Shown here: one piece after another, positions 20,490 through 58,758 of the stretch
Layout: each line of letters opens with the position of its first letter
Numbering within the stretch: the first letter of the stretch is position 1
IMG/VR virus record: IMGVR_UViG_3300028886_000075
Source of the DNA: a virus
Lineage: Duplodnaviria > Heunggongvirae > Uroviricota > Caudoviricetes
DNA length: 64,000 bases
Strand: one strand, 5' to 3'
Made by a program: the position numbers and the translations under genes
Notes under the pieces: model-generated
What the model was told of the DNA's origin: nothing
Database searches by the model: none
What the model saw: only the letters and a program-made list of their open reading frames with translations

Positions 20490-22193
20490 ATGACAAATAA
20501 GCGTTGCTTAATTTATGAAACATTAGGCAAAGTTTCAGATCTTCAGATTGTTGAGTCTGAAAATAGCAACGAAATGCGTCTTCATGGTATATTTGGTGTA
20601 TGTGGAATAAAAAACCAAAATAATCGTGTTTATGATAAAGATAATTACGGTCAAATGGTTGAATCTTTACAAAAAGAAATTCAAGAACATGGATGTCCAG
20701 GTGAATTAGAACACCCTAATTCTATGAATATTAATTTGCAAAATGTTTCACATAAGATAGAAGATATTCAAATGAATGAAGATGGTACAATTACTGGTAC
20801 AATACTTTTGCTTAATACTCCAAGTGGTAAGATTGCAAAAGCTATTGTTGAAGGTGGTTTACCACTTTATATTTCTTCTCGTGGTGCCGGTACAATTACT
20901 AATGAAGGTCGTGTTACGTTATCTACTATTAAGACATATGATCTAGTTGGTACTCCTGGATTTAGTCAAGCTAAACTTACTTTAAAGCCAAATCAAACTC
21001 TTGAATGTCTCAATGAAGGTCTAGATAATGATACAAATATCTGGGCAGTTATAGATGAAGGTAAAGATGATGATGATTTACTTGATAGTAATAATGACAA
21101 AGATAAGGATTCTAATGATAATGAATCTAAGGATAAATCTAAAGAAGAATCTAAGGATAAATCTAAAGAAGAACCAAAAGATAATGAAAATGACGATAAC
21201 AAAAATAATGGCAATGATAATATTGATATGAAAGAATTGAAAGAAGCTATAGATAAACTTACAGAAAAAGTTGAATCTTTAGAAGCTGAACTTCATGTAG
21301 CTCAAGAATCTTTGAATGAGACAAAAGAATCAATTAAGCCAATTAATTATGAAGCAATCGAGAAGTGGTGTACTGAGGAATTTGCTCCATCTTTAAAAAA
21401 TGAATTTAATGAAGATGTAGAAGAAAAAATTCAAAACAGTATCAATGAATCAATTGAATCATTAATGGATAATGTACAAAATTGGATAGTTGAAGAATTT
21501 GCTCCAGAAGTACAAAATTGGGTAGTTGAAGAATTTGCTCCAGAAGTACAAAATTGGGTAGTTGAAGAATTCTCACCTGAAGTACAAAATTGGATAACAG
21601 AAGAATTTGCTCCAGAAGTACAAAATTGGGTAGTTGAAGAATTTGCTCCAGAAGTACAAAATTGGGTAGTTGAAGAATTCTCACCTGAAGTACAAAATTG
21701 GATAACAGAAGAATTTGCTCCAGTTGTTGAAGGTTGGATAACTGAAGAATTTGCTCCAGAACAATCACAAACTATTGAAGCTAAAGTAAATGAAAATGTA
21801 TCTGCATTTATGGAATCTCAAAAGGCAGGTCGTTTAGATGAAATTGATAGCTTATTAGAATCTATTTCTCAAGATAGTAATTCAGATGTAAATAAGATTA
21901 TTAAAGAACAAGCTATTGAAAATAAATATAAAGGAGTTTTTGTTGTAGAAAATATGCCTTCTCAATATACACCTCAATGGGAATTATTAGATGAAGCACG
22001 TCAACAAGAAATAATCCGTACATCAAAAATGTATGATTTCTCTAAAGAAGGTGTTTTAGAATCATTCTGGGCTAACCAAGATTTATCAAAAACTACTGTA
22101 ACTAATAAAGTAAATGAATCAGTTAATCCAATTAATTCATACCAAATGTCTATAGTAGAAAAGATGAAAGCTCTTCGTAATCATGCAATTTAA
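20490..22193 (+). CDS. gp21: prohead protease (T4 gp21-like, peptidase U9 family) fused to an acidic repeat-rich C-terminal (scaffold-like) region
   Basis: The N-terminus aligns by eye with T4 gp21: PGELEHP against LGELNHP, YISSRGAGT against GVSSRGLGS, and DLVGTPGFSQA against DAVWGPSAP. The C-terminus has a KD/E low-complexity stretch and 8 copies of QNWVVEEFAPEV. Confidence 0.8.
   Translation: MTNKRCLIYETLGKVSDLQIVESENSNEMRLHGIFGVCGIKNQNNRVYDKDNYGQMVESLQKEIQEHGCPGELEHPNSMNINLQNVSHKIEDIQMNEDGTITGTILLLNTPSGKIAKAIVEGGLPLYISSRGAGTITNEGRVTLSTIKTYDLVGTPGFSQAKLTLKPNQTLECLNEGLDNDTNIWAVIDEGKDDDDLLDSNNDKDKDSNDNESKDKSKEESKDKSKEEPKDNENDDNKNNGNDNIDMKELKEAIDKLTEKVESLEAELHVAQESLNETKESIKPINYEAIEKWCTEEFAPSLKNEFNEDVEEKIQNSINESIESLMDNVQNWIVEEFAPEVQNWVVEEFAPEVQNWVVEEFSPEVQNWITEEFAPEVQNWVVEEFAPEVQNWVVEEFSPEVQNWITEEFAPVVEGWITEEFAPEQSQTIEAKVNENVSAFMESQKAGRLDEIDSLLESISQDSNSDVNKIIKEQAIENKYKGVFVVENMPSQYTPQWELLDEARQQEIIRTSKMYDFSKEGVLESFWANQDLSKTTVTNKVNESVNPINSYQMSIVEKMKALRNHAI
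21474..21762 (+). repeat. in-frame 36-bp tandem repeat x8 (encodes VQNW[IV][VT]EEF[AS]PE)
   Basis: Direct repeats of gtacaaaattgggtagttgaagaatttgctccagaa with minor variants. Confidence 0.85.
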
Positions 22194-22300
22194 AAAATAT
22201 TAAATAATATTTTTCTATTCAAAAAGAAAATTTTTATTTTTATATAAAATATAAAATTCTCATTAAGAGAGATAACAAATAAATTGAAGTTTTAAATAAT

Positions 22301-24058
22301 ATGTTTAATGAACAAAATGGCGCACAGACATGGGAGAAAATGTTGAAAGAAAACTTCAACGTAACAGACCAGGAAAAACTTAACTGGGTTTCTCAATATG
22401 CTGCTATTCACGAAATTCACGAATCTCAACTTGGAATCAATGGTGGTAACGTAGTAACAAGTACAGCTTATCCAGGTGTTGGTCCTATCTATACAACTCC
22501 AATGAATACTCTTGGTATTGGTAACCCAACTGCTCCAAGTCAATTAGATCCAATGAGCACTGCTCCTTACAATCAAGCTAACCCAACAGGTTCATTCTGG
22601 GGACAAACTCCAGGTTCTGGTGATATTCCAGTATCTACACTTCCAATGGCTCTTAACGTTGCATTGTTAACTATTGGTCTTGAACTTGTACCTGTTATTC
22701 CTGCTAAGGGTCCTTGGGCTATGTTAACATACATGGACTTCCCATACGCTGGTGGTAAACTTGGTCGTGTAAATGAAACATCTTTCGATGGTAAAGGTGA
22801 AAAGAATGAAAACAAACCAATCTACATCAAGATTAAAGGTTTAACACTTCCACAAATCGCTGAAATACGTGAAGCTATGGAAGCTGCTCAAAATCCTGTT
22901 AAAGCTGACGATGCTGTAGTAGTTGCAGGTTTCAAAGGTACATTCATTATGCTTGGTCGTATGGATGCTTGTCCTCTTGTTAAGGTTGTAGAATGCACAG
23001 ATGCAAATACTTCAATAGTTGAAGAATTTAATGCTGCTACATCTGTTGTAATTGGTTCTAAGACAATTACTCTTGCTGCAGGTCAAAAGGTTACTCCTGA
23101 TTTCGTACAAACATCTGTTGATTTAGTTGACGGTTTCGCTAACTTCGCTACAGGTAAGAAAGAATCTATGACACGTGCTCAAAATGAAACTGGTACAGGT
23201 AATGTAATTGGTCTTCGTTTATTCAGTAAGTGGGTTCAAATGGGTTCATACGAAGTTACTGGTACTGTAACTCGTCAACAATTACAAGATCTTCCACTTT
23301 ATGGTGTTGATGCTGTAGGTAAAGTTATGGAAGCTCTTCAAAACGAAATTACACAACACATCAACCAACGTATTCTTGAAAGAGTATTTGCTCTTGGTGT
23401 TACAAATGCTGTACAACAAAAGGCTCGTCAAGGTGTTGATTTGAACTTGTGGATGGGTAAGACAGGTGCTTCTGTTGACATGGCAGATCATTATGCTGGT
23501 GTTCCTCACTTCACAGATATCTATGGTACAGACCATAAACCATTATGGAAAGGTATTTCTAACTCTGAAGTTAACACTTCTGCAGAAAATCTTTCAACAC
23601 GTCAACGTCGTATCATGAGCCGTATCTTAGCTGCTGCTAACTTAATCCAATTGGTAGGTCGTCGTGGTCGTCCAACATGGATCGTTACTAACGGTAAGAT
23701 TGCTTCTGCTCTTCAAGATGTATCTGGTTATGTAGTTGCTCCAATGCTTAATACAATGTCTCAAGCTAATACTCAAAACTTATATCACGCTGGTACAGTT
23801 GCTGGTCTTCAAGTTTATGTAGATCCATATATGGACTGGAATGATACACGTATCTGTATTGGTCGTAAGGGTACAGGTAATGAACCTGGTGTAATATTCA
23901 TGCCATACATTCTTGCTGATACTGTATCTATCACTGCTGAAGGTACAATGGCTCCTAAGATGTTGGTTAACAGCCGTTATGGTATCGCTGAAGCTGGTTT
24001 CTTCCCAGAACTTGCATACTTCACATTGGTTGTTGATTCAGAATTTGATTTGATCTAA
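22301..24058 (+). CDS. gp23: major capsid protein (T4 gp23-like)
   Basis: Several collinear matches to T4 gp23: DLPLYGVDAVGKVMEALQNEITQHINQRILE against LRAVHGMDADAELSGILATEIMLEINREVVD, GRRGRPTWIVTNGKIASALQDV against GRGEGNFIIASRNVVNVLASV, and the C-terminus MPYILADT...RYGIAEAGFFPE against APYVALTP...RYGIGINPFAE. Host-optimal codons. A terminator follows the gene. Confidence 0.88.
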   Translation: MFNEQNGAQTWEKMLKENFNVTDQEKLNWVSQYAAIHEIHESQLGINGGNVVTSTAYPGVGPIYTTPMNTLGIGNPTAPSQLDPMSTAPYNQANPTGSFWGQTPGSGDIPVSTLPMALNVALLTIGLELVPVIPAKGPWAMLTYMDFPYAGGKLGRVNETSFDGKGEKNENKPIYIKIKGLTLPQIAEIREAMEAAQNPVKADDAVVVAGFKGTFIMLGRMDACPLVKVVECTDANTSIVEEFNAATSVVIGSKTITLAAGQKVTPDFVQTSVDLVDGFANFATGKKESMTRAQNETGTGNVIGLRLFSKWVQMGSYEVTGTVTRQQLQDLPLYGVDAVGKVMEALQNEITQHINQRILERVFALGVTNAVQQKARQGVDLNLWMGKTGASVDMADHYAGVPHFTDIYGTDHKPLWKGISNSEVNTSAENLSTRQRRIMSRILAAANLIQLVGRRGRPTWIVTNGKIASALQDVSGYVVAPMLNTMSQANTQNLYHAGTVAGLQVYVDPYMDWNDTRICIGRKGTGNEPGVIFMPYILADTVSITAEGTMAPKMLVNSRYGIAEAGFFPELAYFTLVVDSEFDLI

Positions 24059-31107: not shown

Positions 31108-31199
31108 TATTTATATATTATATAAATTTTAACATAAATTAATTGAACTTATTTAAATTTTTTCTATATTAAATTTGTAATATTTAAAATTAAATAAAC

Positions 31200-36426: not shown

Positions 36427-36936
36427 CTACTTTTTAGTGTCATTATCTGCAGGTTTATTTAATTCTTCAAGTTTACGAATTACAATATCGTGCTTAGAAG
36501 CAATATCATATGTAGCTTCTGTAGCATCTACATAAGCATTATGAAGTGGTTCAAAATACTTATTAATTGCAACAACTGCAGACCATTCAGCATAACCTGT
36601 AAATTGCATCTGACCTAATGTACGAAGAATAGCATCAAGTTGAGCATAAGGAATCTTCTTTGCTTTCTTTTCTGGATTCCAAAAATCATAAAGACCAACT
36701 AAACCTAATGTATATTGCCATTGTACGGTCTGCTTATTCAAAAGCATTCTAATACCTTCGGCAACTTCCTTATAGTTTTCTTTTGGTAAATCAAATTCAA
36801 GTTTTGAAACTCGAACATCATTTTCATCAGCATCCCCAATAAGTTCAGCTTCAATCTTTTCTAACTCTTCCTTTGTTTTTCCTGTTAAAGAATCTTCATA
36901 TTCTTTAAGCATCTTTTGTTTTTCCTCTATATTCAT
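36427..36936 (-). CDS. hypothetical protein
   Basis: 169-aa ORF with host-like codons. Confidence 0.55.
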   Translation of the reverse strand: MNIEEKQKMLKEYEDSLTGKTKEELEKIEAELIGDADENDVRVSKLEFDLPKENYKEVAEGIRMLLNKQTVQWQYTLGLVGLYDFWNPEKKAKKIPYAQLDAILRTLGQMQFTGYAEWSAVVAINKYFEPLHNAYVDATEATYDIASKHDIVIRKLEELNKPADNDTKK

Positions 36937-36958
36937 TTATACGTATAAAATATTTTTA

Positions 36959-37477
36959 TTAGATCAACACAAATATAATTAATGCTATTATAAAATAGAT
37001 TAATAAATGTATTGAAAATTTCTTAAATTCTTTAGCAAATCTTTTTCTAGAAACAACATCAAATATAATCAAATAATTATCTCCATTCTTTGGACCAACA
37101 TGTTTAAATTCTAAATCAATAAAATGATAAAGATTTTCTATTTTAAACAAATCACCAATTAAATTTAATTGTTTATATGTCCAATGTTTTATATATTCAT
37201 TATTATTTGTGTTTTCTCCATCTAATTCTATTATAGTTTTTGTAAAATCAAATTCTCCTTTTTCATTTATATTTGGATTAATTATTCCATAAAGACGTCC
37301 AATCCAATCTTTTTTAATATTAACATTCAAATACTCCTTTAAAACAATTTTAAATGCTTCACTATATAATGTATCTGAAATATATTCATAATCTTTTATA
37401 TAATCAGAAATATATTTGATTATATTGAAAAACTTCCCTAATAATGTATAACTAAATAATGATTTTAAAAGTTTCAT
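36959..37477 (-). CDS. hypothetical protein with a C-terminal TM segment
   Basis: 172-aa ORF with a C-terminal hydrophobic tail, LLIYFIIALIIFVLI. Confidence 0.5.
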   Translation of the reverse strand: MKLLKSLFSYTLLGKFFNIIKYISDYIKDYEYISDTLYSEAFKIVLKEYLNVNIKKDWIGRLYGIINPNINEKGEFDFTKTIIELDGENTNNNEYIKHWTYKQLNLIGDLFKIENLYHFIDLEFKHVGPKNGDNYLIIFDVVSRKRFAKEFKKFSIHLLIYFIIALIIFVLI

Positions 37478-37730
37478 TTATGTATTCCATGATATAAGAT
37501 TTATATAAAAAATAGTAAATATAAATGAAACTTTTAAAAAAATGTAAAAATTTTTAATTTAAATAAAATATATATTAAAATATTAATATTATTGAAATAT
37601 TTTTAAAATATACTATATTAGATTATCATTAATAAAATCAAACAAATATGAATATATTTATATAAAATTTTTATTTTTATAAAATCTATTTAGTATAATA
37701 AGAATTAATTCAATTTAACATTTATATAAT

Positions 37731-38894
37731 ATGAAAAGTCTTAGTCAAAAAAAGTCTGAAAATAAAAATTTTAAAGTTCAATCAAACAGTATTAATTTTA
37801 TAGATGCTGAAGATTTAAAGAAGTATCTTAAAGTTGCAAATAATTTTATCGGAGAAGATACAAAGGAACTTATTGATTGGTTGATTGTTAATAATAAAAC
37901 ATATATCAGCGATCTTTCAACTGATGACGATGAAAATGCATTAGCAGGATTTTATAAAGCAGGTGAACCTTCAAAAGGTGATTTAAAAGCGCTTTATAAA
38001 TTACTCAAAGATATTATTAAAAGTAATCGTATAATGGAAATTCCTGTTTTTCAAACTAAAGAACAGTTTGAGAATATTATTAATAAGAAAGTCCCAGCTG
38101 ATACAATTATACTAGATCTTAATTCTGAAAGCGGTCGTGCTGCAGTTGCAAAGAAATACGAACCATTAGTACATAAAATTTGTCATCAATGGGTAGGTAA
38201 GATCAATCTTCCTTATGATGATCTTCTTGGATTTGCATATGAGGGTCTTACATATGCAATGAATAACTATGGTAAAAAGAATAAGAAATCTACTGCAACT
38301 GATGAAGCAGTATTATCATATACATTTGGACAGTTTGCTGCATATTGTATTCTTAATCAAATTAAGGGTAATGGAGTTTATGCATCACATCTTGTTAGAA
38401 TTTCACCATCTCAACAAAAGAAAGAACGTCAAGAAAAGGGACATAATACAAAGAACTTCTCTTTATCTGGTGATAAAGTAGTTGGACATAATGATGAAGG
38501 TTCTAAAACATTATTTGACTTTATTGGTTCTGCTGAAAATTCATCTAATGATTTAGATAAGCAAGATCTTGAAAAATTACTTTCTGAAGCATATAAGATT
38601 TTGGAAAAGAACTTTAGTGATAAGACTATGGAAATTTGGTATAGTTTCTATGGAGTAAATGGTCATAAACAACTTTCTAATAAAGAACTTGCCGCTAAAT
38701 ATAATGTAGCTGGTTCAAATATTAGTTATTATTGTTATAAAGTAAATGCATTTATTCTTAAGAACAAAGAAATTCTTGATAAATTTAAAGAAATTAAAGA
38801 ACTTATGAATGAATGTCTTAATGATATTGACCGTGATAGTGATATGCGTGGTACAATGGTAACTAATACTGAAAATATAGATAATGAAGAATAA
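37731..38894 (+). CDS. sigma-70-family RNA polymerase sigma factor (phage-encoded)
   Basis: Region-2-like AAVAKKYEPLVHKICHQWVGKINLPYDDLLGFAYEGLTYAMNNYG and a region-4-like C-terminal HTH (NKELAAKYNVAGSNISYYCYKVNAFILKNK). Confidence 0.6.
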   Translation: MKSLSQKKSENKNFKVQSNSINFIDAEDLKKYLKVANNFIGEDTKELIDWLIVNNKTYISDLSTDDDENALAGFYKAGEPSKGDLKALYKLLKDIIKSNRIMEIPVFQTKEQFENIINKKVPADTIILDLNSESGRAAVAKKYEPLVHKICHQWVGKINLPYDDLLGFAYEGLTYAMNNYGKKNKKSTATDEAVLSYTFGQFAAYCILNQIKGNGVYASHLVRISPSQQKKERQEKGHNTKNFSLSGDKVVGHNDEGSKTLFDFIGSAENSSNDLDKQDLEKLLSEAYKILEKNFSDKTMEIWYSFYGVNGHKQLSNKELAAKYNVAGSNISYYCYKVNAFILKNKEILDKFKEIKELMNECLNDIDRDSDMRGTMVTNTENIDNEE

Positions 38895-39084
38895 TAATAC
38901 TAATTATTCAGAATGGCATGATGTAATATGTAAGAAAGACTTAACTATTGAACGTAAAGAAGGAAATATTACATTTAAAGCTAATAATGAATATAAAGCA
39001 TCAAAAATAAATACTAATTGGTGGCTTATAGACCAAATTGGTGTAAAAAATAATGATTTTAAAAAGTATTTTAAAGATATATAA
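38884..39084 (+). CDS. hypothetical small protein
   Basis: 66-aa ORF that overlaps the upstream stop. Confidence 0.4.
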   Translation: MKNNNTNYSEWHDVICKKDLTIERKEGNITFKANNEYKASKINTNWWLIDQIGVKNNDFKKYFKDI

Positions 39085-39102
39085 AAAGATCAAATAAATT
39101 AT

Positions 39103-39333
39103 ATGAAAAATATCGGAGATAAAATTAACGAAGGACTAAATGTTTCAAAATCTTTTGTCTTAAATATGAAAGAACTTGATTACGATAAATTAATTGATTT
39201 TATTAAAGATATGCAATCTAAAAACGAAGACTTTATTGAATTACAAGTTGATTCATCTCGTAAATGGATTGGATATTCATTTTCAAAAGGAAAAACTGAT
39301 AATATTAGATACAATAAAACTGAATTAAATTAA
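39103..39333 (+). CDS. hypothetical protein, CTS-like N-terminus (MKNIGDKINEG)
   Basis: ORF with a weaker copy of the conserved N-terminal motif. Confidence 0.55.
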   Translation: MKNIGDKINEGLNVSKSFVLNMKELDYDKLIDFIKDMQSKNEDFIELQVDSSRKWIGYSFSKGKTDNIRYNKTELN

Positions 39334-39334
39334 T

Positions 39335-39529
39335 ATGAAACAAATAAAAGAATTTATTAATGAATCAAACGAATGGAATCCATCATTAGATTCTCATAAA
39401 GTTGCATATAATAACTTTGTTAAATGGTATGACAAATGTTTAAAACATTTAAATAAAGAAGAAATATTAGATTTACTTAATGGAGCAATTAAAGAAATTG
39501 AAGATGATTCATTAGATATCATAAAATAA
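39335..39529 (+). CDS. hypothetical protein, CTS-like N-terminus (MKQIKEFINES)
   Basis: Conserved N-terminal motif. Confidence 0.6.
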   Translation: MKQIKEFINESNEWNPSLDSHKVAYNNFVKWYDKCLKHLNKEEILDLLNGAIKEIEDDSLDIIK

Positions 39530-39547
39530 ATATATTGAAACTAATTA

Positions 39548-40069
39548 ATGAAATCAATAACTCAATATATATATGAAGCTGTAGAAAATTATAGATTGAA
39601 TTCTGTTGAAGTTACATATAATGTTCAACCAGAAGAATTAATATTACAAGCACCTGAAACATTCCAAGAGTCAGATATCCAACAATACATAGACGATATG
39701 TGGCTCAATCAACTTCCATCTTCTCAAGACTATTCTGAAAAATTCTTTGGAAAAAATAATGATAATATATCTGATGCATATTTTGAATATGATTCATTTG
39801 AACATCTTTCAGTAGAACCTAAAGATTATATTGAATGGAATTCAAAATATGATGTTAAGAAAAGTGGAGATGACATTACATTAGAATACTTTAAAATAAC
39901 AAATCTTAAATATCATATTAATTTTGATAGATTTGATATGGTTGATGTTGATGATGATAATGTAGAAGAAAAACTTAAAGATATATTTAGAACCACAGAA
40001 TCTAATAAAGAAAATGAATATCCTATAGAAATTCAATTTGATGAAGATTCACTTGAATATAGAAAATAA
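39548..40069 (+). CDS. hypothetical acidic protein, CTS-like N-terminus (MKSITQYIYEA)
   Basis: Conserved N-terminal motif. Confidence 0.6.
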   Translation: MKSITQYIYEAVENYRLNSVEVTYNVQPEELILQAPETFQESDIQQYIDDMWLNQLPSSQDYSEKFFGKNNDNISDAYFEYDSFEHLSVEPKDYIEWNSKYDVKKSGDDITLEYFKITNLKYHINFDRFDMVDVDDDNVEEKLKDIFRTTESNKENEYPIEIQFDEDSLEYRK

Positions 40070-40129
40070 ATAAAACAAAATAAAGATATTATATAGAGGC
40101 ATAATACCAAATACATCTATGATTATCTT

Positions 40130-40339
40130 TTGATTACAAAACCTCGATCTGACTGTAATAAACATATTATTAAACGTGAACATTACTGTAAAAAAGACGG
40201 TGAATGGAAACCTAAGAAAAAGTTTAATAGTGAAGAAGAAGCCAATACATGGATAACAAAATATAAAATGTACAAATATACTGCATATATATGTAAAGTC
40301 TGTGGAAAATGGCATATAGGTATTAAAAAGAAAACATAA
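40130..40339 (+). CDS. small zinc-ribbon-like protein
   Basis: CNKH...HYCKK...CKVCGKWH, 69 aa. Confidence 0.45.
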   Translation: MITKPRSDCNKHIIKREHYCKKDGEWKPKKKFNSEEEANTWITKYKMYKYTAYICKVCGKWHIGIKKKT

Positions 40340-40359
40340 AAACATTAAAAAATCAATAT

Positions 40360-40677
40360 ATGAAAGATTTAATTAGTATAATAACAGAATCAAGAAAAGA
40401 AATATGTCCTGAAGTTCAAAATGAATTCGAAAATGATTATGCATATCAATCTTATACAACAACAAAATCAAAATTTGATTATGGATTTTTAACATTTGAT
40501 GCTAATCAAGAATTTTATTCTGTTGTTGGAGTTAATGAAAACAGTGAATTCATTGATTCTTTATGTAATGATTTTAATTTAGATGCAGAAGAATTATTAG
40601 ATTTAAAAGTTGGTGAATCAATAAGTGATAAAAGCCATGGAGATAATTATAACTATTCAATTTTAAGAATTTGGTAA
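40360..40677 (+). CDS. hypothetical protein, CTS-like N-terminus (MKDLISIITES)
   Basis: Conserved N-terminal motif. Confidence 0.6.
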   Translation: MKDLISIITESRKEICPEVQNEFENDYAYQSYTTTKSKFDYGFLTFDANQEFYSVVGVNENSEFIDSLCNDFNLDAEELLDLKVGESISDKSHGDNYNYSILRIW

Positions 40678-40701
40678 AAATATAAAATATAATCACATAT
40701 T

Positions 40702-41196
40702 ATGAAAAATTTAACTGAAAAACTTAATATACAAAATATTAATGAATCAGTCGCAAAAGATATTAAGATTCCACGTAAAGGAAGCACTGTATATCTTTTA
40801 AAAGATGGTGATTCTAAAGCAATACCTGTAAAAGTCAATAATGTCACAAAGGTTAAGAACTCTTGGTATGGACGTTCAGGTGGATATGATGTAATTATTG
40901 AATTAGAAGATAATGAATATAAATTTGATGGCTGGAAAACATCACATTATGCAGACCCAAAATTAGATGAACCTATTCAAGTAGATACAAAATCAGTACA
41001 TGGAATTGGCACTTTTTACGTTGGTACATCTAAAGAAGTAATTTCAGAATTCATAAAGAATGGTGCGACAAAGAAACTTAAAATGTTACTTAAAGAAATA
41101 GAAGATGCAGAAAATCAACTTGCAGAATTAAATCGTCAAAAGAATGAACTTCAACAAAAGATTGACACTGAAATTACAGAATCTTTAAATAAATAA
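40702..41196 (+). CDS. hypothetical protein, CTS-like N-terminus, C-terminal coiled coil
   Basis: MKNLTEKLNIQNINES. C-terminus LKEIEDAENQLAELNRQKNELQQKI. Confidence 0.6.
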   Translation: MKNLTEKLNIQNINESVAKDIKIPRKGSTVYLLKDGDSKAIPVKVNNVTKVKNSWYGRSGGYDVIIELEDNEYKFDGWKTSHYADPKLDEPIQVDTKSVHGIGTFYVGTSKEVISEFIKNGATKKLKMLLKEIEDAENQLAELNRQKNELQQKIDTEITESLNK

Positions 41197-41205
41197 TTTA
41201 TAATT

Positions 41206-41487
41206 ATGAAAGACATTAAAGAAAAACTATTAAGCCAGATTAATGAAGACAGATTTGCATATTCATGGCAAAATGCTTTCATAAATGCTATCATATCATT
41301 AAATGATGTTGATGGTGAAATTCCTTGTCGTGAAATAGTCAATAAATGGTTTAATGATGAACAAGCTCTTCATGAATTATATACATTCTTATATCGTATA
41401 GATTGTAAACCTGAAAAGAAGGATGTAAATTCTATAGTTGAAGCAATTATAAATAAATCATCAAAATTGAAAACTTACAAGATATAA
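41206..41487 (+). CDS. hypothetical protein, CTS-like N-terminus (MKDIKEKLLSQINED)
   Basis: Conserved N-terminal motif. Confidence 0.6.
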   Translation: MKDIKEKLLSQINEDRFAYSWQNAFINAIISLNDVDGEIPCREIVNKWFNDEQALHELYTFLYRIDCKPEKKDVNSIVEAIINKSSKLKTYKI

Positions 41488-41508
41488 AAATATATGAGTT
41501 AAACAAAT

Positions 41509-41772
41509 ATGAAAAATTTAAAAGATAAATTAGTTTTGGAAAATGAAGAATCTGCAATATTTACATTAACTGCTAAAGATTTAGATAAGATACTTTTTTC
41601 ATTATCATTTACTGCTGGGTGGGCTAGCGAAGTTAATTCATATGAAATGAAAGAATATAAGAAACTTTGGGATGAATTAAATAAAGGAGCAAAGAAATCA
41701 TTTGATGCAGATATGTATGTAGATGACTGGGATGATTATGAACTGGCTCATACAGGAAGCTTTAAACATTAA
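41509..41772 (+). CDS. hypothetical protein, CTS-like N-terminus (MKNLKDKLVLENEES)
   Basis: Conserved N-terminal motif. Confidence 0.6.
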   Translation: MKNLKDKLVLENEESAIFTLTAKDLDKILFSLSFTAGWASEVNSYEMKEYKKLWDELNKGAKKSFDADMYVDDWDDYELAHTGSFKH

Positions 41773-41803
41773 TTATATAATAAATTATGAGAATACTTAA
41801 ATA

Positions 41804-42154
41804 ATGAAAGACATTAAAGAATATATTAATGAATCTAAAAATTTCAAATTAGAATCTGATGAACGTCAAGCTTTAGCAGACTTAATTGGTATGTTATGCG
41901 GTAATATTGGAAATGATGAAGATATAAACAAATTAAAATCTGTAATAGATCAATTAAGTAAAGAAGAAATAAAACAATTAGATAATCTTCATGATTGTTT
42001 AGATGATGAAGAAACATATAAGAAAATAAATCGTAATATTATTATTGATGATATTCCATTGATTAAAAAAATATATAAATTAATGGATGATAATAATTTA
42101 TTAGGAGAACAATGGGATCTTATTGATGCTTTAGAGAAAATAAATGAATATTAA
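41804..42154 (+). CDS. hypothetical protein, CTS-like N-terminus (MKDIKEYINES)
   Basis: Conserved N-terminal motif. Confidence 0.6.
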   Translation: MKDIKEYINESKNFKLESDERQALADLIGMLCGNIGNDEDINKLKSVIDQLSKEEIKQLDNLHDCLDDEETYKKINRNIIIDDIPLIKKIYKLMDDNNLLGEQWDLIDALEKINEY

Positions 42155-42156
42155 AT

Positions 42157-42558
42157 ATGAAACAAATAACATCATATTTGTTAGAAGGTCTTCGTATCAA
42201 TAAAGATATTAAAGTTAATTATGAAAGAGATGATATATACAACATTATAATTGCTGCTTATCTTTCTATATATCGTCTTAAATGTTGGACTGAAACATCT
42301 ACATTTAAAAAGAAAATTTTATATATTAAATATGAAGATATATTAAATATTCTTAATGATAATTTTGAATATACATTTACAAAAGACGATATAAAAAGAA
42401 CATCAGGATATATATGGAAAATTGTTAGAAAATATTTAATACCTATTCAGAATATGATTAATGGATATAATGTAATTATTAGAATTGAAGATGAAAAAAT
42501 AACAATTAATTATAAAGAAATTAATGAAAAGTATAAAGACATTTTAAATAAAAAATAA
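42157..42558 (+). CDS. hypothetical protein, CTS-like N-terminus (MKQITSYLLEG)
   Basis: Conserved N-terminal motif. Confidence 0.6.
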   Translation: MKQITSYLLEGLRINKDIKVNYERDDIYNIIIAAYLSIYRLKCWTETSTFKKKILYIKYEDILNILNDNFEYTFTKDDIKRTSGYIWKIVRKYLIPIQNMINGYNVIIRIEDEKITINYKEINEKYKDILNKK

Positions 42559-43496
42559 TGCAATCTTTGAATAACTATATAATAGAAACAAATATAGAAA
42601 ATATTTTTTTGGATAAATTATGTAATCATATATCATTATCATTATATATTAAATATGGTTACGGAATTTATCCATATGTTTCTTTATATGAATCATTTGG
42701 TAATTTTAAGAATACTCATAAAGTATTATATCATATTATTGAAGTATTAAAAAATGAATTCAAGTCTCAAGAAATAGATTGTACTAATGATAATGTATTT
42801 TTCAAGAAAATAAAAATAGATATAGTTAATGAAGATTATATAAGTGCAAGTTATTTAAATATTAATAATGATAAAATAGATATTGAAATATTATGTTTAG
42901 ATAAAGAAATGTTTATTGATAATATTGAAGAATATACTGAATTGATATTACATGAACTTTTACATGGTTATGAAGATTTTAACCGTAAAACAACTAATAA
43001 ACCAGATATATTTCAATTATGGAATGTTGATTATGAAAAATCTTATTTAAATATAAATAATTTTGATAAGATTAAAAGATATATAAGTAGATGTAAATAT
43101 TTTTTAAATTCACAAGAACGTAATGCGTATTTTTCATCTTTAGAATTATCTATTAAGAAAATAATTAAAGATTATCATATTACTGCAGATAATTTAGATT
43201 ATGAAAAATTCAAACATGGAATTAAACGCGAAACATTATGGGAAATTTATTTTGATTTAGGAACATTTATTCTAGGATTAAATAATATAAATAATGAATA
43301 TAAAAAGGAAATAGAAAAACAATATAATTCATTATATAATACAAACAAATCATTTAACGAAATCAAAAAAGAATTAAATAATAAATGGAAAAAATTTGAT
43401 CATAAATTCAATCAGTTAATTCCTAAAATATTATGTAAAAATATACAAATAAAAGAATTTAAAAATTCTTCTTTTAGTTTGAAAAAATTATTATAA
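42558..43496 (+). CDS. hypothetical protein with an HExxH motif (LHELLHGYEDF), CTS-like N-terminus (MQSLNNYIIET)
   Basis: An HELLH pentapeptide is followed by GY. A paralogous HELNHGY is present in the 63029 ORF. Confidence 0.55.
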   Translation: MQSLNNYIIETNIENIFLDKLCNHISLSLYIKYGYGIYPYVSLYESFGNFKNTHKVLYHIIEVLKNEFKSQEIDCTNDNVFFKKIKIDIVNEDYISASYLNINNDKIDIEILCLDKEMFIDNIEEYTELILHELLHGYEDFNRKTTNKPDIFQLWNVDYEKSYLNINNFDKIKRYISRCKYFLNSQERNAYFSSLELSIKKIIKDYHITADNLDYEKFKHGIKRETLWEIYFDLGTFILGLNNINNEYKKEIEKQYNSLYNTNKSFNEIKKELNNKWKKFDHKFNQLIPKILCKNIQIKEFKNSSFSLKKLL

Positions 43497-43508
43497 AAAC
43501 TTTACATT

Positions 43509-44396
43509 ATGAAGTCATTGAACAACTATATATTTGAATCTAAAGAAGTTTCTACAAAATCTAATAAAGAACGTCGTAAGGAATTGGAAAAATGGTTGAA
43601 ACATAAAAAGTATGACGATTATGTTGATACTTTAAATAAGATGCTTGAAGATCCTAAATCAGCTGCATTATTGGAAGATGGTTTTGGGGGAGAACTTGGA
43701 GATACAAAATTAACATTTTCAGTTAAAGAAATTCCAGTATCTCAGTTAATGCCTACACAAAAAGATATAGATTTAGATAAGTCATTAAAACATGCATTAA
43801 CAGATAAAGAATCTTTAATTAAGACTTTTGCAAATCCAATTGAAATCAATAAGCCTATTGTTACTTTTAGAGAGAATTATGTTATAGACGGTCATCATAC
43901 ATGGCTACAAGCTATAGCATTAAATCCAAAAGGAAAAATATTATCATTTAATTATGACGGTGATATTTCTCCAATTCAGATGCTTAAGGCTGTACAAGGA
44001 ACTATAGCAGCAGTTAAAGCTGATAAGAATAATAATAATGGTAAACTTCCATCAAATAATGTAAAAGGTCCTAATTTCTTTGATGAATCATTTGATGAAA
44101 AGAAAATTAGGAAATATATAGAAGATAATCTTAATGAAGACTTAATAGATCAATATATAGAAAAAATAGAAGAATGCTATGATTACGATTCTACTGTTGA
44201 TTATATAGTAGAACGTCTATTAGATATTAAGTCAAATAATTATCCATTTGATACAGCACCAGATAGAAAGAATATGCCACAAGTATTTAAAGGTGGCACA
44301 GATAAAGATGATAAAAGTTCTGCATTACCTGATAAAGAAGGTTCTGCGATGAATAAACTTAAAAATGATACCTTTTATAAAAAAGCTACCATTTAA
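43509..44396 (+). CDS. ParB/sulfiredoxin-fold nuclease-like domain protein, CTS-like N-terminus (MKSLNNYIFES)
   Basis: VSQLMPTQKDID ... PIVTFRENYVIDGHHTWLQAIALN resembles the ParB N-terminal domain (L-PTQ ... DGHHR). Confidence 0.45.
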   Translation: MKSLNNYIFESKEVSTKSNKERRKELEKWLKHKKYDDYVDTLNKMLEDPKSAALLEDGFGGELGDTKLTFSVKEIPVSQLMPTQKDIDLDKSLKHALTDKESLIKTFANPIEINKPIVTFRENYVIDGHHTWLQAIALNPKGKILSFNYDGDISPIQMLKAVQGTIAAVKADKNNNNGKLPSNNVKGPNFFDESFDEKKIRKYIEDNLNEDLIDQYIEKIEECYDYDSTVDYIVERLLDIKSNNYPFDTAPDRKNMPQVFKGGTDKDDKSSALPDKEGSAMNKLKNDTFYKKATI

Positions 44397-44436
44397 ATAA
44401 GTATAAATATGATAAATTTATAAAATCAGTTACAAA

Positions 44437-44892
44437 ATGAAAGATATAGTTAATTATATTACAGAAGCATCTTCATCAAAATTTGATTATTGGAAAGATG
44501 TAATTAAATTTCCTGGATATGAACTTAAAGTATCAAAGAAATACTTAGACAAGAAAATAAATACAAGATATTATCAGGAAGAATTCTTATATCAATATTT
44601 TGGTTGGATTAACCAATGGATTGATAAGAATGTTAAAAAGATTATTAGTATAGTAACTAAAGAAAATAAAGAGTTTCCAAAAGAAATTTCAATATCTTTA
44701 CCAAGTGAATTACATGGTGTTTTACAATTTGACTGGGATTGTGGTTGGGCAGATAATATACCAACAGGATCTCTTCGTGATGTTGAATTAAAAGTAGATA
44801 ATGTTTCACCAGGATCAATGAGTCATAGTTCATTCTATCAGGCACAAGAAGATTTACAAAATTTTAAATTAAAAGATATAATTAAATTTTAG
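44437..44892 (+). CDS. hypothetical protein, CTS-like N-terminus (MKDIVNYITEA)
   Basis: Conserved N-terminal motif. Ends with TAG, a rare stop in this window. Confidence 0.6.
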   Translation: MKDIVNYITEASSSKFDYWKDVIKFPGYELKVSKKYLDKKINTRYYQEEFLYQYFGWINQWIDKNVKKIISIVTKENKEFPKEISISLPSELHGVLQFDWDCGWADNIPTGSLRDVELKVDNVSPGSMSHSSFYQAQEDLQNFKLKDIIKF

Positions 44893-44943
44893 TTTAATAG
44901 ACAATAAATAATATTTTTAATAAATAGATATTAATATTAATTA

Positions 44944-45498
44944 ATGAAAGACATTAAAACATTTATTTCAGAAGCAAAGAAACAAACACCTAAAAAAGAA
45001 TACCCTATGAAAAAGAAAGAAACTTATGGAGATTTAGGTGAAAAATGGTTTGATAAGTGTAAAGACTTTGCTACGGCAGGAAGTACACAATGGACTAAAT
45101 ACGGTATCAATGATTTTAAAGGATTCTTAGAAGATATGGATAAAGAATTCAAACCAGGTGGAGAAGGCCGTTGGAAAAAGGATTGTGAAGTTCGTTGGGA
45201 AATGTGTCAAGCACTTAAAGATAAAGATTTAGATAAATTTGTAAAAATTGCTAAAGAAAACTATGTTGAAAAATTTACTTTTGGTGCACATCCTAATGCT
45301 GATTACACTTATGGATCATATTTTTTAGATACTTATATGCTTCTTAGAACTTACGAATATATTCTTGATGGCAATATGGTAATTCGTAATGGTATTTTAA
45401 ATGCTATCTGGAGAATTGATGATACTATGGATAATTGGTATGATAAATTTATTGATACAGTTCATAAATTAGAAAAACAAGTTCCTGGACATAAATAA
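44944..45498 (+). CDS. hypothetical protein, CTS-like N-terminus (MKDIKTFISEA)
   Basis: Conserved N-terminal motif. Confidence 0.6.
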   Translation: MKDIKTFISEAKKQTPKKEYPMKKKETYGDLGEKWFDKCKDFATAGSTQWTKYGINDFKGFLEDMDKEFKPGGEGRWKKDCEVRWEMCQALKDKDLDKFVKIAKENYVEKFTFGAHPNADYTYGSYFLDTYMLLRTYEYILDGNMVIRNGILNAIWRIDDTMDNWYDKFIDTVHKLEKQVPGHK

Positions 45499-45528
45499 AT
45501 AATATATCAAACATATAAACATATAAAA

Positions 45529-45840
45529 ATGAAACATATTAAGAATTATATATTAGAAAAAAATGAAGATAAAACTTTAAGTGGATTCTGTATCATAGAT
45601 ATGACAGATGAAACATTGATATCTAGGTGGGGAACTGGTGATTTAAGAAAATGTATAACAGAATTACAAAAGCTTAAAAAGGAAGAAGAAGATAAAGAAT
45701 ATTGGATAGTTGCTGAATTTAATGAAATATATGATTTAGAAGATACTGGTAATTATAGAGTATTATCTTCAAGAGAATATAATGAAAGAGAAGATGATTT
45801 TGGTATTAATCCAAAATTTAAAGAGTATATACTTAAATAA
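45529..45840 (+). CDS. hypothetical protein, CTS-like N-terminus (MKHIKNYILEK)
   Basis: Conserved N-terminal motif. Confidence 0.6.
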   Translation: MKHIKNYILEKNEDKTLSGFCIIDMTDETLISRWGTGDLRKCITELQKLKKEEEDKEYWIVAEFNEIYDLEDTGNYRVLSSREYNEREDDFGINPKFKEYILK

Positions 45841-45857
45841 ACACATATATATGATAT

Positions 45858-47234
45858 ATGAACGTTAAAATTGTTCAAGATAATAGTAGAACTGAACGTA
45901 ATGTTTCAGATGATGTAGTAGAAATACTTTATCAAGAAACTAAAAACTATGAAACACACGATAATTCTAAATTAATTGGTAGTATTGAAATCAATCGTGG
46001 GTATTCTGATGCAGTAGAATTTTTAAATAGAAATTATTCAAATTTAACAATATCTACTAAATTTGAATCATATATAAGATTTGAAGATCCTATTGTTGAA
46101 CAATTAATATTAGATAGATTTTCAACATTAGATACTCCAGTTGGTGATGGCATAGGTATAACACAATCTGATTTAAATAGTATTAATCAAGGTTGGTTTT
46201 GGGATACTTTTCAAAATACTGAAATAACTAAATTTAATGAATTTAAATTATGTATAAATTATAAAAATTTATCAAGTGCAAGTTTTAAAAATTGTACAAA
46301 ATTAGAAGAAATTAATTTAACTAATATTGAAATCATATCTGTAGCTTCATGTTTACAAAATACCAAAATAAAAGAAGCATATTTACCAAATTTAACAAAA
46401 ATAACTGCGGGTAATATTTTTTATAATTGTACAGAATTGGAATCGTTTAATGCTCCTTTATTAGAACAAATAACTGGTGCTTCACATTTTTATAATTGTA
46501 CTTCATTAAAAACAATAAACATACCTATATTTAATGGTAGAATAAGTGAGTCTATGTTTAGAAATTGTTCTTCATTAGAAACATTAAATATAGGAAATAT
46601 TACTGAAATAGTTGGGAGTTATGCTTTTCTTGGGTGTAAAGAATTGTCTTCAATAGATTTATCTGAATGTACAAAAATACAAAGCGATTCTGTATTTAAT
46701 GGTTGTTCTTCTTTAACTAATTTAGGAGATACATCAAATATTACTTATTTTAATGGAACTTGGACATTTTTTAATTGTTCAAATTTAACTGGTACTTTAG
46801 ATTTATCTAATATTAGTAATGATTTTAATTTAACTGGTACATTTAATAATTGTTCAAATTTAACAAAAATAAAATTAGGTGTTACAAATACTATAGGTAG
46901 TAGATGGCATGGTTTTGACAATGATAGAAAAGCATTTTACGGATGTACTAATTTAGTTACAATAGATATTAAACAATTAAACCATACAGCTCTTGAGTAT
47001 AAAAGTGCATTTGGTAATAATCCTGCATTAAGAAATTTTATAATACGTAATACTGAAAATATACCTGCATTTGATAATGAACAAACAACAGTAAATATAA
47101 ATTGTTTTGGTGGATCAAATGTTAAAGTATATGTTGATGATAATTTATTAGAAACATATAAAACTACAGAAGGCTGGGAAGATATGATAGATTATTTATA
47201 TCCTATTAGTGAATATGTTCCTATAGAAGATTAA
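45858..47234 (+). CDS. BspA-type leucine-rich repeat (LRR_5-like) protein
   Basis: Repeats of the form F..C..L..I.L.N.T.I....F..C..L. Confidence 0.65.
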   Translation: MNVKIVQDNSRTERNVSDDVVEILYQETKNYETHDNSKLIGSIEINRGYSDAVEFLNRNYSNLTISTKFESYIRFEDPIVEQLILDRFSTLDTPVGDGIGITQSDLNSINQGWFWDTFQNTEITKFNEFKLCINYKNLSSASFKNCTKLEEINLTNIEIISVASCLQNTKIKEAYLPNLTKITAGNIFYNCTELESFNAPLLEQITGASHFYNCTSLKTINIPIFNGRISESMFRNCSSLETLNIGNITEIVGSYAFLGCKELSSIDLSECTKIQSDSVFNGCSSLTNLGDTSNITYFNGTWTFFNCSNLTGTLDLSNISNDFNLTGTFNNCSNLTKIKLGVTNTIGSRWHGFDNDRKAFYGCTNLVTIDIKQLNHTALEYKSAFGNNPALRNFIIRNTENIPAFDNEQTTVNINCFGGSNVKVYVDDNLLETYKTTEGWEDMIDYLYPISEYVPIED

Positions 47235-47314
47235 TTTATATGTAAAAATTACATATATTATTTAAAAAATTTAATGTTTATACTATATTATATTTGTAAT
47301 TAATAAAATAATTA

Positions 47315-47758: not shown

Positions 47759-47780
47759 TTAAATTTAAATCTAATACTTT

Positions 47781-47823
47781 TAGACAATATTTAACTTTTG
47801 TTAATTATTGTCTATTTTTTTAT
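47781..47823 (+). terminator. rho-independent terminator (tagacaata-17nt-tattgtcta then TTTTTTTAT)
   Basis: Read directly from the sequence. Confidence 0.65.
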
Positions 47824-57540: not shown

Positions 57541-58758
57541 GTGAGTAAACAGTTTAATTTAAGTAAGTCTTCGTTAAACGAAATAGAATTATTTTTTGAT
57601 AAGATAGATTCTTTTATTGATGATTATGAATTTTATGATACATTTAAAGAAATTGTATATAAAGATTCTAAAATGATAAAAGATTGTTCGGAAAAATGTA
57701 TTGTAAGTTTTTATATAGAGTCTTGTAAAGATATATTAGAAAAATCTAATTATGAAATATATGAATCTTTTTATAATGATTTAAAATATAAAACAAGATT
57801 AAAACTTGTTGATAAGTTTGTACCAAAAGTTTTATATGATAATAATATTGATATATATTTTAATGAAGTAAAAAGAGAATATATTATGCATCCTATGGGT
57901 GAATCTGAAGATATGGCGTTTGTACCAGAAAATAAAGAAGTTTTTATTAAGAATAATTTAAAACTTGTAATTGATTGTGCAAAACGTTATCAAAATTTAG
58001 GTATTCCATTGGAAGATTTAATACAAGCAGGCAATGAAGGATTATTAATAGCTTTTAATAAATTTGATGGTGAAAGATCAAATTTAAGAAATAATATCAT
58101 AAACGATATAAAGAAATCAGATTTATATTTTTTTAATAAATATGATGCAATAGATATTATTAAAAAAAATTTTCAATATACAAAAACTTTAGAATCAACA
58201 TTAAGTAAATTACCCGAAGAAGGATTTGAATGTAAAGATGATTTTATTGATTGGGCACAAGAAAACATTAAAAAAGCATCGTTTTCATCTATAGGTTTTG
58301 CGTGGATTAAGGCATTTATATTATCTGAAATTAATAAACTTGGAAAGATAATAAGAGTTCCTAAGTCTGCTCAAAAGAAAGGTGTATCTACAGTTAATGT
58401 TTTACGTTTAGATTCAATTAATCCACACACTGATGATTCATATCACGATAATCAAATTTCTTCAGTCGCAAATGAAGAATTTGCTATTGAAGATGAAACA
58501 ATGGAAAATATGGAACGTCAGAATTTATTCAAAGAAATAATTGAACGAATGCTTTGTAATGTTTCTGCATTAGATAGAAGAATAATAAAAAAGAAATTTG
58601 GAATTGATAAACCATTTCCAATGTCAATAAATGAAATAGCAGAAAATGAAGGTTTATCTGCAAATAAAGTTAAGTATAGTATAAGTAATACATTAAAGAT
58701 AATTGAAAAAAATTGTACACCAAATGAACGTAAAACAATAATATCACTTTTGAAGTAA
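57541..58758 (+). CDS. sigma-70-family RNA polymerase sigma factor (second phage-encoded copy; GTG start)
   Basis: Region 2: NKEVFIKNNLKLVIDCAKRYQNLGIPLEDLIQAGNEGLLIAFNKFDGER. Region-4-like HTH: MSINEIAENEGLSANKVKYSISNTLKII. Confidence 0.65.
   Translation: MSKQFNLSKSSLNEIELFFDKIDSFIDDYEFYDTFKEIVYKDSKMIKDCSEKCIVSFYIESCKDILEKSNYEIYESFYNDLKYKTRLKLVDKFVPKVLYDNNIDIYFNEVKREYIMHPMGESEDMAFVPENKEVFIKNNLKLVIDCAKRYQNLGIPLEDLIQAGNEGLLIAFNKFDGERSNLRNNIINDIKKSDLYFFNKYDAIDIIKKNFQYTKTLESTLSKLPEEGFECKDDFIDWAQENIKKASFSSIGFAWIKAFILSEINKLGKIIRVPKSAQKKGVSTVNVLRLDSINPHTDDSYHDNQISSVANEEFAIEDETMENMERQNLFKEIIERMLCNVSALDRRIIKKKFGIDKPFPMSINEIAENEGLSANKVKYSISNTLKIIEKNCTPNERKTIISLLK

Follow-up and report, generated by a model that had tools for sequence, protein, structure and literature searches.

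A strongly diverged sigma-70-family factor heads a conserved island of genes with capsid-targeting-like leaders in uncultured rumen and gut phages

The 387-residue protein encoded at 37731-38894 in a 64,000-nt stretch of phage DNA (hereafter "the window", meaning the whole stretch analysed) is a genuine, strongly diverged member of the sigma-70 family, with a region 2 and a region-4 helix-turn-helix (HTH). We have termed it sigma-1. Phage sigma factors are a textbook route to the takeover of host transcription, and we consider it likely that sigma-1 is a functional sigma that replaces the host sigma on the host core polymerase, made early from a promoter-like element (class A, below) and acting, along with other sigmas, in a cascade like that of SPO1. 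T4-related jumbo phages are already known to encode sigma factors (Iyer 2021, PMC7824862), and one more sigma in a T4-related megaphage would, by itself, change nothing. What is new is the domain architecture of sigma-1 and a family-wide N-terminal leader that resembles the capsid targeting sequence (CTS) of T4.

The features discussed are listed in Table 1. The preliminary description had outlined a 387-aa open reading frame (ORF) behind a divergent, AT-rich gap of ~250 bp, at the head of a second island of genes with CTS-like N-termini. The coordinates, strand and start of the ORF are borne out, its ATG being the earliest start following an in-frame stop, and the setting is also as described: the intergenic gap (37478-37730) measures 253 bp and separates minus-strand genes from a plus-strand block, with a GC content of 8-12% as compared to 27-34% in the sigma-1 gene and a mean of ~25% in the window. 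The sign of the GC skew flips at the same gap. To the left lie the minus-strand genes (36959-37477 and others further left), a block that comprises a 172-aa and a 169-aa gene, followed by genes for a UvsW-like helicase and MazG.

To the right, sigma-1 and the downstream block of small genes are probably co-transcribed as a unit of ~9.5 kb, of which sigma-1 would be the first cistron, since the downstream gaps do not exceed 51 nt and no terminator-like site was found in 38800-48000. The next class A site past this block is at 47261. Relatives and a sister clade share the layout of the downstream block. The gene order, kept in relatives with as little as 45-50% identity, is tail sheath, helicase (minus strand), 169-aa gene (minus strand), 172-aa gene (minus strand), gap, sigma and many small genes; the sister clade, whose sigma is ~27% identical, has the same order. 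The gene occurs in one copy per contig among the relatives and, being syntenic as well, belongs to the core genes of these uncultured phages, which come from rumen/gut and measure ~380-440 kb.

Table 1. Positions of sigma-1, its domains and associated elements in the 64,000-nt window.
Feature	Position	Strand	Evidence or remark
gp21-type prohead protease and gp23-type major capsid protein, each behind a class B element	20490..24058	+	Pfam
Divergent AT-rich control region	37478..37730		
Class A promoter-like site: TTGAAA, 16-nt spacer, (C)TATATT	37592..37619	+	Conserved in relatives
Class B element TTTTATTTTTATAAAAT	37669..37686	+	Also before capsid, sheath, protease and tail-fibre-like genes
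Third conserved block TCTATTTAG-TATAAT, -10-like sequence	37685..37699	+	
Sigma-70-family gene (sigma-1), 387 aa	37731..38894	+	
N-terminal 10-residue leader MKSLSQKKSE	37731..37760	+	AF2 model disordered over residues 1-11
Family-specific helical N-terminal domain, residues 12-130; most conserved part of the sigma-1 family	37764..38120	+	
Sigma2 domain, regions 2.1-2.4, residues ~133-220; 12-residue insertion between 2.2 and 2.3	38127..38390	+	
Region-3.0-like short helix and conserved, partly disordered linker, 3.2-like motif VGHNDEGSKTLFDFI	38391..38549	+	Secondary structure, pLDDT
Sigma4 domain, residues ~274-345; unusual recognition helix S-N-I-S/T-Y-Y	38550..38765	+	
C-terminal helix and low-confidence acidic tail (...ENIDNEE)	38766..38891	+	
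Downstream block, ~20 small genes and LRR protein, mostly with CTS-like leaders	38884..47234	+	Gaps <=51 nt
Second sigma-70-family gene (sigma-2), distant paralogue	57541..58758 (start 57541/57673)	+	

The window protein does not pass the curated score cut-offs of the sigma-70 family (Pfam, TIGR02937). Searched alone, it has no match in Pfam, and it scores 23.7 bits (E 3e-5) with TIGR02937, below the cut-off of 42.9; a search of the PDB with the single sequence returned spurious helical-repeat matches only. The failure to reach the Pfam and TIGR02937 cut-offs reflects divergence and does not contradict the fold evidence. The same protein matches PHROG 351, "RNA polymerase sigma factor", with an E value of 6.6e-13. 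When a profile made from a 39-sequence alignment of sigma-1 relatives was compared with PDB sequences, all significant matches were sigma factors, aligned over regions 2.1-2.4 with the R-I-P motif included. Twenty of the 39 relatives match Pfam Sigma70_r2 (best E 1.4e-6), and 15 match the region-4-related HTH of LuxR/GerE. By hhalign, columns 122-249 of the family align with residues 346-456 of sigma70, Escherichia coli RpoD (E 2.9e-6).

An AlphaFold (AF2) model calculated from the alignment has a mean pLDDT of 75, and Foldseek retrieved with this model RpoD/SigA chains only (probability 0.99-1.00). The sigma2 domain (regions 2.1-2.4) is recognisable by profile as well as by fold, and a sigma4 HTH domain is present towards the C-terminus. 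PHROG 351, the family profile and Foldseek thus agree with the earlier assignment to the sigma-70 family, with region 2 and a region-4 HTH; the outcome named there as contrary to it, a non-sigma HTH family, is not what the profile searches returned.

The preliminary description had called the protein a "full-length" sigma, and this term has to be given up. The region 1.1/1.2 module and the three-helix sigma3 domain, both features of group 1 sigma factors, are absent from sigma-1: only one helix and a linker connect the R-I-S motif to sigma4, and the N-terminal part is taken up instead by the conserved 120-aa domain, for which no neighbour was found in the PDB. We considered a fusion with an island gene as the origin of this domain and rejected it, because the domain profile matches sigma orthologues only.

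Within the linker, the conserved columns are G237, S246, G247, K259, F262 and D263. The linker motif VGHNDEGSKTLFDFI is colinear with IGDDEDSHLGDFI of sigma70 region 3.2, but this likeness alone is not significant (z ~1.5), and the same holds for the sequence similarity, taken alone, of the C-terminal half of sigma-1 to sigma70. According to the hhalign alignment, the region 2.3 equivalents of sigma70 F427, Y430 and W433 are aromatic (F, F/Y and Y, respectively), and W434 is replaced. In region 2.2, the equivalents of Q406 and E407, the sigma70 pair that contacts the beta-prime coiled coil, are not conserved. The recognition helix of sigma4 reads SNISYY as compared to R-E-R-I-R-Q in sigma70; as it is devoid of the basic residues that read TTGACA, the target promoter is not predictable from it.

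In a large protein database, we found 278 relatives of 92% to <50% identity, ~385-395 aa long, on contigs of up to 442 kb; the JGI label "sigma-70 family" is their only usable annotation. Among 1.84 billion representatives, searched exhaustively with HMMER, there are 673 relatives at E <=1e-3, 110 of which at <=1e-30, and they form three tiers: orthologues of ~390 aa; a sister subfamily of 450-490 aa that has the same N-terminal domain and an additional C-terminal domain; and proteins of 200-250 aa that match profile positions ~133-357 only, i.e., ordinary small phage sigmas of PHROG 351. The sigma-1 family is, thus, a phage sigma core with an acquired N-terminal module.

Neither tblastn nor megablast, with the gene and the 20-kb region, detected a homologue in GenBank phages, even at E up to 5. 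A homologue occurs in only two of 185,579 species genomes, both rumen or goat "MAGs"; one of these carries the label Erysipelotrichaceae and consists of just one 400-kb contig, almost certainly the genome of a phage. The sigma-1 family is found only in uncultured phages and has no cultured or GenBank representative. This undescribed family stands out by its novel N-terminal domain, by a CTS-like leader, by the lack of a sigma3 domain and by the place of its gene as the first in a conserved island.

The window also encodes the proteins with which the kinship of the phage can be assessed. The prohead protease scores 39.6 bits with Pfam Peptidase_S77 (cut-off 27) and the major capsid protein 109.5 bits with Gp23, and there are genes for the tail sheath, the tail tube and the large subunit of topoisomerase II in addition to those for the helicase and MazG. 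The closest GenBank capsids are from an uncultured 462-kb phage (LR756500.1; 36%), Sphingomonas phage PAU, the Tenacibaculum phages PTm1 and pT24, and Prevotella Lak phage (30%), and the contigs of the relatives measure 376-442 kb. The stop codons in the window are TAA (68), TGA (10) and TAG (3), and the genetic code is the standard one; with these counts, intact ORFs and a capsid only 30% identical to that of Lak, we rejected a Lak phage with recoded TAG as the source.

No homologue of gp55, gp33, the clamp or an RNA polymerase (RNAP) was found in the 64-kb window, which is ~15% of a genome of ~440 kb, and Rfam has no match in it. The "group 2" jumbo phages have no RNAP, and all encode sigma factors, minimal or RpoD-like, along with a gp33 orthologue (Iyer 2021, PMC7824862). 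Lak phages have likewise been reported to encode sigma factors (PMC6784885). The source phage corresponds to this RNAP-less, sigma-bearing group 2 (PMC7824862). The signs of its host conflict: the Shine-Dalgarno-less genes (1/81) point to Bacteroidetes and the MAG labels to Firmicutes.

A second sigma-70-family gene, at 57541-58758, had been absent from the preliminary description. Its product, sigma-2, matches PHROG 351 (E 2.5e-17) and reaches 25.4 bits with Pfam Sigma70_r2, whose gathering score is 24. By hhalign, sigma-2 aligns with the sigma-1 family from region 2.1 to region 4.2 (E 3.6e-6); because of this alignment, an insertion site common to both between 2.2 and 2.3, and the common motif R(I/V)PxSxQKK, the two are old paralogues.

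Scans with the generic sigma70 consensus are uninformative in DNA of 25% GC (21 sites in the window vs 23.8 expected; 86 vs 91.6 expected), and for this reason, our promoter evidence is cross-relative conservation only. The class A pattern, TTGAA(A/T)-N16/17-TATATT with a spacer ending in C, precedes the sigma gene not only in the window but also in five diverged relatives (L001, L006, L007, L008 and L009), where it is kept at the same place between diverged flanks. The strict pattern has three matches in the window (0.39 expected), all of them intergenic and on the plus strand. A looser pattern has nine (3.0 expected), and five of these are intergenic, on the plus strand and 23-112 nt upstream of a gene; intergenic DNA makes up only 6.9% of the window.

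Since the geometry of class A is compatible with ordinary -35/-10 promoters as well as with the TTTG/TAnnTTTG promoters of Bacteroidetes, class A reads as a host-type, early promoter regardless of the host. The opposite proposition, that class A would be foreign to a host from the Bacteroidetes and hence demand an injected sigma, was rejected: the TTTG-N19-TAnnTT geometry fits class A too, and the argument is also countered by the MAG labels that point to Firmicutes. A full Bacteroidetes-type promoter was not found in the window.

The class B element consists of an invariant TTTATTTTTA core followed by WWTAAAT and is situated 10-74 nt upstream of the genes for the tail-fibre-like protein, the protease, the capsid, the sheath, the LRR protein and sigma-1 (the cores before protease and capsid are at 20407 and 22233). 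Fifteen IMG/VR relatives, with capsids as little as 57% identical, keep it before the genes for capsid and sheath, and four relatives (L001, L007, L008 and L009) keep it before the sigma gene. The information content of class B is one contiguous block, with no separate -35-like block, and its 3′ half is similar to the late box of T4, TATAAATA; in these respects, it looks like a candidate promoter of the T4 late, -10-only type. The third conserved block is kept in the window, L001 and L007, at a varying distance to the class B core.

We propose that the host holoenzyme would read the conserved -35/-10 promoter, by which sigma-1 would be made soon after infection. Sigma-1 would then bind the core polymerase of the host instead of the host's own sigma, as no phage RNAP is found in the 64-kb region, and take this polymerase to a phage-specific promoter class. 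The class B element, which the sigma-1 unit has in common with the virion structural genes, may keep this unit on late, and together, sigma-1 and sigma-2 would make up an SPO1-like cascade of sigma replacement from early to middle or late. Precedents are SPO1 gp28/gp34 and T4 gp55 (PMC9429907). Class B is the obvious candidate for the phage-specific class read by sigma-1, but a gp55-like factor encoded elsewhere in the genome could read this -10-only element instead.

Whether sigma-1 is the late sigma proper is a narrower question, and we regard an affirmative answer as possible but rather doubtful. Made early from class A, sigma-1 would then read class B (TTTATTTTTA-WWTAAAT), activating both its own operon and the genes for capsid, sheath, protease and tail fibre, and replace gp55/gp33 of T4. 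Such a role implies positive autoregulation. Class B in the window precedes exactly the structural genes and sigma-1, and is kept in relatives, which suits a late sigma; its contiguous form without a -35, however, better suits a factor with region 2 only than one with a conserved sigma4, and the likeness of its 3′ half to the T4 late box TATAAATA points the same way. The 64 kb surveyed include the structural module and have no gp55/gp33 homologue, but they cover only ~15% of the genome, and gp33 orthologues and minimal sigmas occur throughout group 2 (Iyer et al., PMC7824862). Sigma-2, moreover, is an equally good candidate for the late factor.

The preliminary description had gone on to a transcription strategy unlike that of T4. 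This is not inferable from 64 kb of a ~440-kb genome: gp55, gp33 and an RNAP could lie elsewhere, and sigmas along with gp33 are documented in group 2 (PMC7824862).

The leader raises another prospect, which we deem improbable, namely that sigma-1 is packaged in the virion. The CTS-like leader would load the factor into the prohead core, the gp21-type protease would trim the leader off, and sigma-1 would enter the cell with the DNA and re-programme the host polymerase from the first minute, like T4 Alt. In the family, the leader follows the pattern M[KR]x[LIF][ST]x[ILF][IL]xE (e.g., MKNFSTFIIES, MKNLTTFISES and MKSLTQIYEA), a pattern similar to the capsid targeting sequence of T4, MKTYQEFIAE (PMC8442874). 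Encapsidation in T4 needs only the first 10 residues, of which 4 and 7 serve targeting and 8 and 10 cleavage by gp21, and the internal proteins of T-even phages have only this leader in common (PMC9026906, PMC3012670). The family leader fits the T4 rule of hydrophobic residues at 4 and 7, I/L at 8 and E at 10 (PMC9026906).

The leader is tied to the N-terminal domain: by the strict or the loose pattern, it is present in 100 of the 162 orthologues (62%) and in 39 of the 54 members of the sister subfamily (72%) vs 1 of the 32 sigmas without the domain (3%). Both this linkage and the disorder of residues 1-11 in the model agree with packaging. The window copy, MKSLSQKKSE, tells against it: L4 and E10 are kept, but with K at 7 and 8 it departs from the T4 rule, by which its leader is degenerate, and close relatives of this copy also have a degenerate leader.

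The leader pattern is not confined to the sigma gene. It starts 21 of the 81 genes in the window, in clusters at 1541-5457 and 39103-45840, and in these 21 genes, it is kept at the protein level through codon changes: position 4 is L/I by way of six codons, position 7 is Y/F/I, position 8 is I/L and position 10 is E in 19. In the sister clade, the leader variants are MKxIxESIIGRKG in the island genes and MKSFTEQILENN in the sigma. That the sigma gene heads a leader-bearing island in two clades is in favour of packaging, as are the structural-gene element upstream of sigma-1 and the S77 (gp21-type) protease and Gp23 (gp23-type) capsid of the same genome. A targeting function of the leader in this clade is, however, proposed by analogy with T4, early synthesis of sigma-1 is already explained by the conserved host-type promoter, and in the literature, a search for a virion-borne or packaged sigma found no precedent.

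We consider it very unlikely that sigma-1 has evolved from a sigma into a decoy or regulator, which would bind DNA by its HTH or else the core polymerase of the host and shut off or modulate host transcription without initiation: although the core-contact residues of region 2.2 and W434 are not conserved, the sigma4 recognition helix is atypical and the N-terminal domain could carry another activity, this role is improbable because both DNA-reading domains are conserved, and the R-I-P motif, the region 2.3 aromatics and the 3.2-like finger motif are likewise kept across hundreds of sequences, while the short relatives with the sigma2-sigma4 core alone are ordinary PHROG 351 phage sigmas.

A functional, early-made sigma on the host core polymerase is, thus, the reading that we prefer. 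The work defines a large, metagenome-confined family in which a sigma core is joined to a conserved domain of unknown fold, and links this sigma to a conserved island of genes with a common T4-CTS-like leader. The two conserved candidate promoter classes make the temporal programme of a clade of ~440-kb rumen phages testable. If the leader truly targets the capsid, these phages would inject a transcription factor along with dozens of other proteins, which would be a new takeover strategy and offer a handle for engineering protein delivery. Should sigma-1 itself be packaged, the megaphage would bring its own promoter-specificity factor and the leader-bearing island would amount to an extensive injected arsenal. 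Sigma-1 would then be the first sigma known to be packaged, and immediate takeover would have a third route, beside T4 Alt and the virion RNA polymerases. The latter are those of N4, phiKZ and crAss-like phages.

Amongst known systems, the T4 internal proteins and Alt resemble the island in the 10-residue leader pattern, in the diversity of small proteins that have the leader alone in common, and in the accompanying gp21-type protease and gp23-type capsid. Alt is an injected modifier of the host RNA polymerase (PMC3012670, PMC9026906). Unlike sigma-1, none of the packaged T4 proteins is a known sigma, and the leader of sigma-1 in the window is degenerate, its packaging being suggested by analogy. 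T4 gp55 is likewise a sigma-family factor of a T4-related phage, and class B resembles the -10-only T4 late promoter TATAAATA; gp55, however, consists of region 2 only (~185 aa) and needs gp33 and the sliding clamp, whereas sigma-1 has 387 aa with a sigma4 and an N-terminal domain, and no gp55-type family in Pfam, PHROGs or NCBIfam matches it.

SPO1 gp28/gp34 (PMC9429907) are, like sigma-1, diverged phage sigmas, several per genome, that replace the host sigma and switch temporal classes. They differ in that host and lineage are unrelated, the match to sigma-1 is limited to generic region 2, and there is no extra N-terminal domain. More closely alike are the small sigmas of PHROG 351 (~200-250 aa; sigma2-linker-sigma4), which match positions 133-357 of the sigma-1 profile with E values of 1e-24 to 1e-32 and have the motifs YxPLVxKI, FxQYAAYxIRN and YG(L/V)NG...KE(I/L)AxKY in common with sigma-1. 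They are without the 130 residues of leader and domain, and the leader occurs in only 1 of 32.

From the RpoD-like sigmas of the group 2 jumbo phages (Lak, PTm1, PAU; PMC7824862), sigma-1 is set apart by its novel N-terminal domain, its leader and the lack of a sigma3 domain, and no sequence homologue of sigma-1 was detectable in Lak, PTm1 or PAU, even at E up to 5. With the group as a whole, the source phage has in common the Gp23 capsid, the UvsW-type helicase, the absence of a visible RNAP and more than one sigma per genome, and presumably also the logic by which phage sigmas recruit the host core polymerase.

The window carries two genes of the sigma-70 family. The preliminary description had placed one (sigma-1) at 37731-38894 on the plus strand, and this assignment stands; the further family member (sigma-2), which went unflagged there, is nearer to the canonical sigmas, with the Sigma70_r2 profile matched above its cut-off. 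The C-terminal half of sigma-2 aligns with sigma70 at z ~4.2, and an insertion of about 55 residues separates region 2.2 from region 2.3. Two start codons are candidates, GTG at 57541 or ATG at 57673, and a hairpin followed by a T-run lies upstream of the gene (57462-57502). The sigma-1 family ends in a low-confidence acidic tail with the recurring motif ...EN(T/I)x(I/L)(E/D)E, possibly a protein-interaction peptide.

Two kinds of promoter-like sequence recur in the window. The class B element, TTTATTTTTA-WWTAAAT, precedes the genes for a tail-fibre-like protein, the prohead protease, the capsid, the sheath and a leucine-rich-repeat (LRR) protein (48844-51147, where it lies directly 5′ of the gene). 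It is kept in 15 IMG/VR relatives (loci L010-L024), and no -35-like block accompanies it. Class B is a candidate late promoter of this phage clade. Variant forms, CTATTTTTT(T)ATATAA, lie ahead of 47853 and of the minus-strand gene 36959-37477. The additional copies of the class A site read (T)TTGAA/TTTAAA-N16-17-(T)ACTATATT; all five are intergenic, with gene starts 23-44 nt downstream, and one precedes the block leading to the topoisomerase II gene.

Features located in the window and in related loci
Feature	Position or accession	Strand	Remark
Second sigma-70-family gene (sigma-2)	57541-58758	+	Pfam Sigma70_r2 score above cut-off
Sigma-1 conserved helix YELMKECLNE-DR and acidic tail	38766-38891	+	residues 346-387
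Class B element	11288, 20407, 22233, 24220, 37670, 48825	+	
Further class A promoter-like sites	5494-5522, 5964-5991, 31143-31170, 47261-47289, 59306-59334	+	
Two genes divergent from sigma-1	36427-37477	-	169-aa and 172-aa proteins
Leader-bearing gene clusters	1541-5457, 39103-45840, 62168-63001		T4-CTS-like N-termini
2188-aa ORF	13752-20318	+	structural module
Two large LRR (LRR_5-type) proteins	45858-47234, 48844-51147	+	
Small hairpin CTC-N4-GAG and conserved box in capsid mRNA leader	~22262-22298		also upstream of capsid gene in L010-L017
Sister-clade loci (L035/L036)	IMGVR_UViG_3300032030_000028 and _000026		462-aa sigma-1 orthologue
Sigma-1 orthologue (L037)	CADBGE010000001.1, 400,076 bp		GTDB species representative, label Erysipelotrichaceae RUG13941
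Sigma-1 orthologue (L038)	JAFRDD010000111.1		GTDB species-representative MAG, label Clostridia RGIG2387

The sister-clade orthologue of sigma-1 bears an extra domain of some 110 aa at its C-terminus and has the same divergent neighbours as in the window. These two genes are found in all relatives as well; neither protein has a family match, and the 172-aa product has a C-terminal transmembrane helix. In the sister clade, the upstream gap holds three copies of TGTTTTTT(A/G) in place of the class A and class B motifs, and the downstream small-gene island shares a leader, MKxIxESIIGRKG, that differs from that of the window. CADBGE010000001.1, a single 400-kb contig under a bacterial MAG label, is probably a megaphage genome misfiled as a bacterium.

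A leader resembling the T4 capsid targeting sequence (CTS), with the pattern MK-x-L/I-x-x-Y/F/I-I/L-x-E, opens 21 of the 81 window genes, where it is kept at the protein level despite synonymous and conservative codon changes. Beyond the leader these proteins show no kinship; DUF285/BspA-like repeat proteins and a P-loop kinase-like protein are among them, and for numerous others no function could be assigned. LRR proteins similar to those in the window also follow the sigma-led block in two relatives (L001, L002). The 2188-aa ORF has no Pfam match, its sole match being PHROG 14959 (unknown function; E 1.5e-53).

Directly 5′ of the capsid start codon, the window and L010-L017 conserve the box ATAACAAATAAATTT; the sequence of the leader hairpin varies among these relatives. 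Hairpin and box together may act as a translational control element for a genome that lacks Shine-Dalgarno sites: the core is present at -20 to -4 in one of 81 window genes, and the sequence upstream of the genes is A-rich. Stop codons are TAA in 68 cases, TGA in 10 and TAG in three, and the window phage therefore uses the standard code, in which it differs from the related Lak phages, Prevotella phages with recoded TAG.
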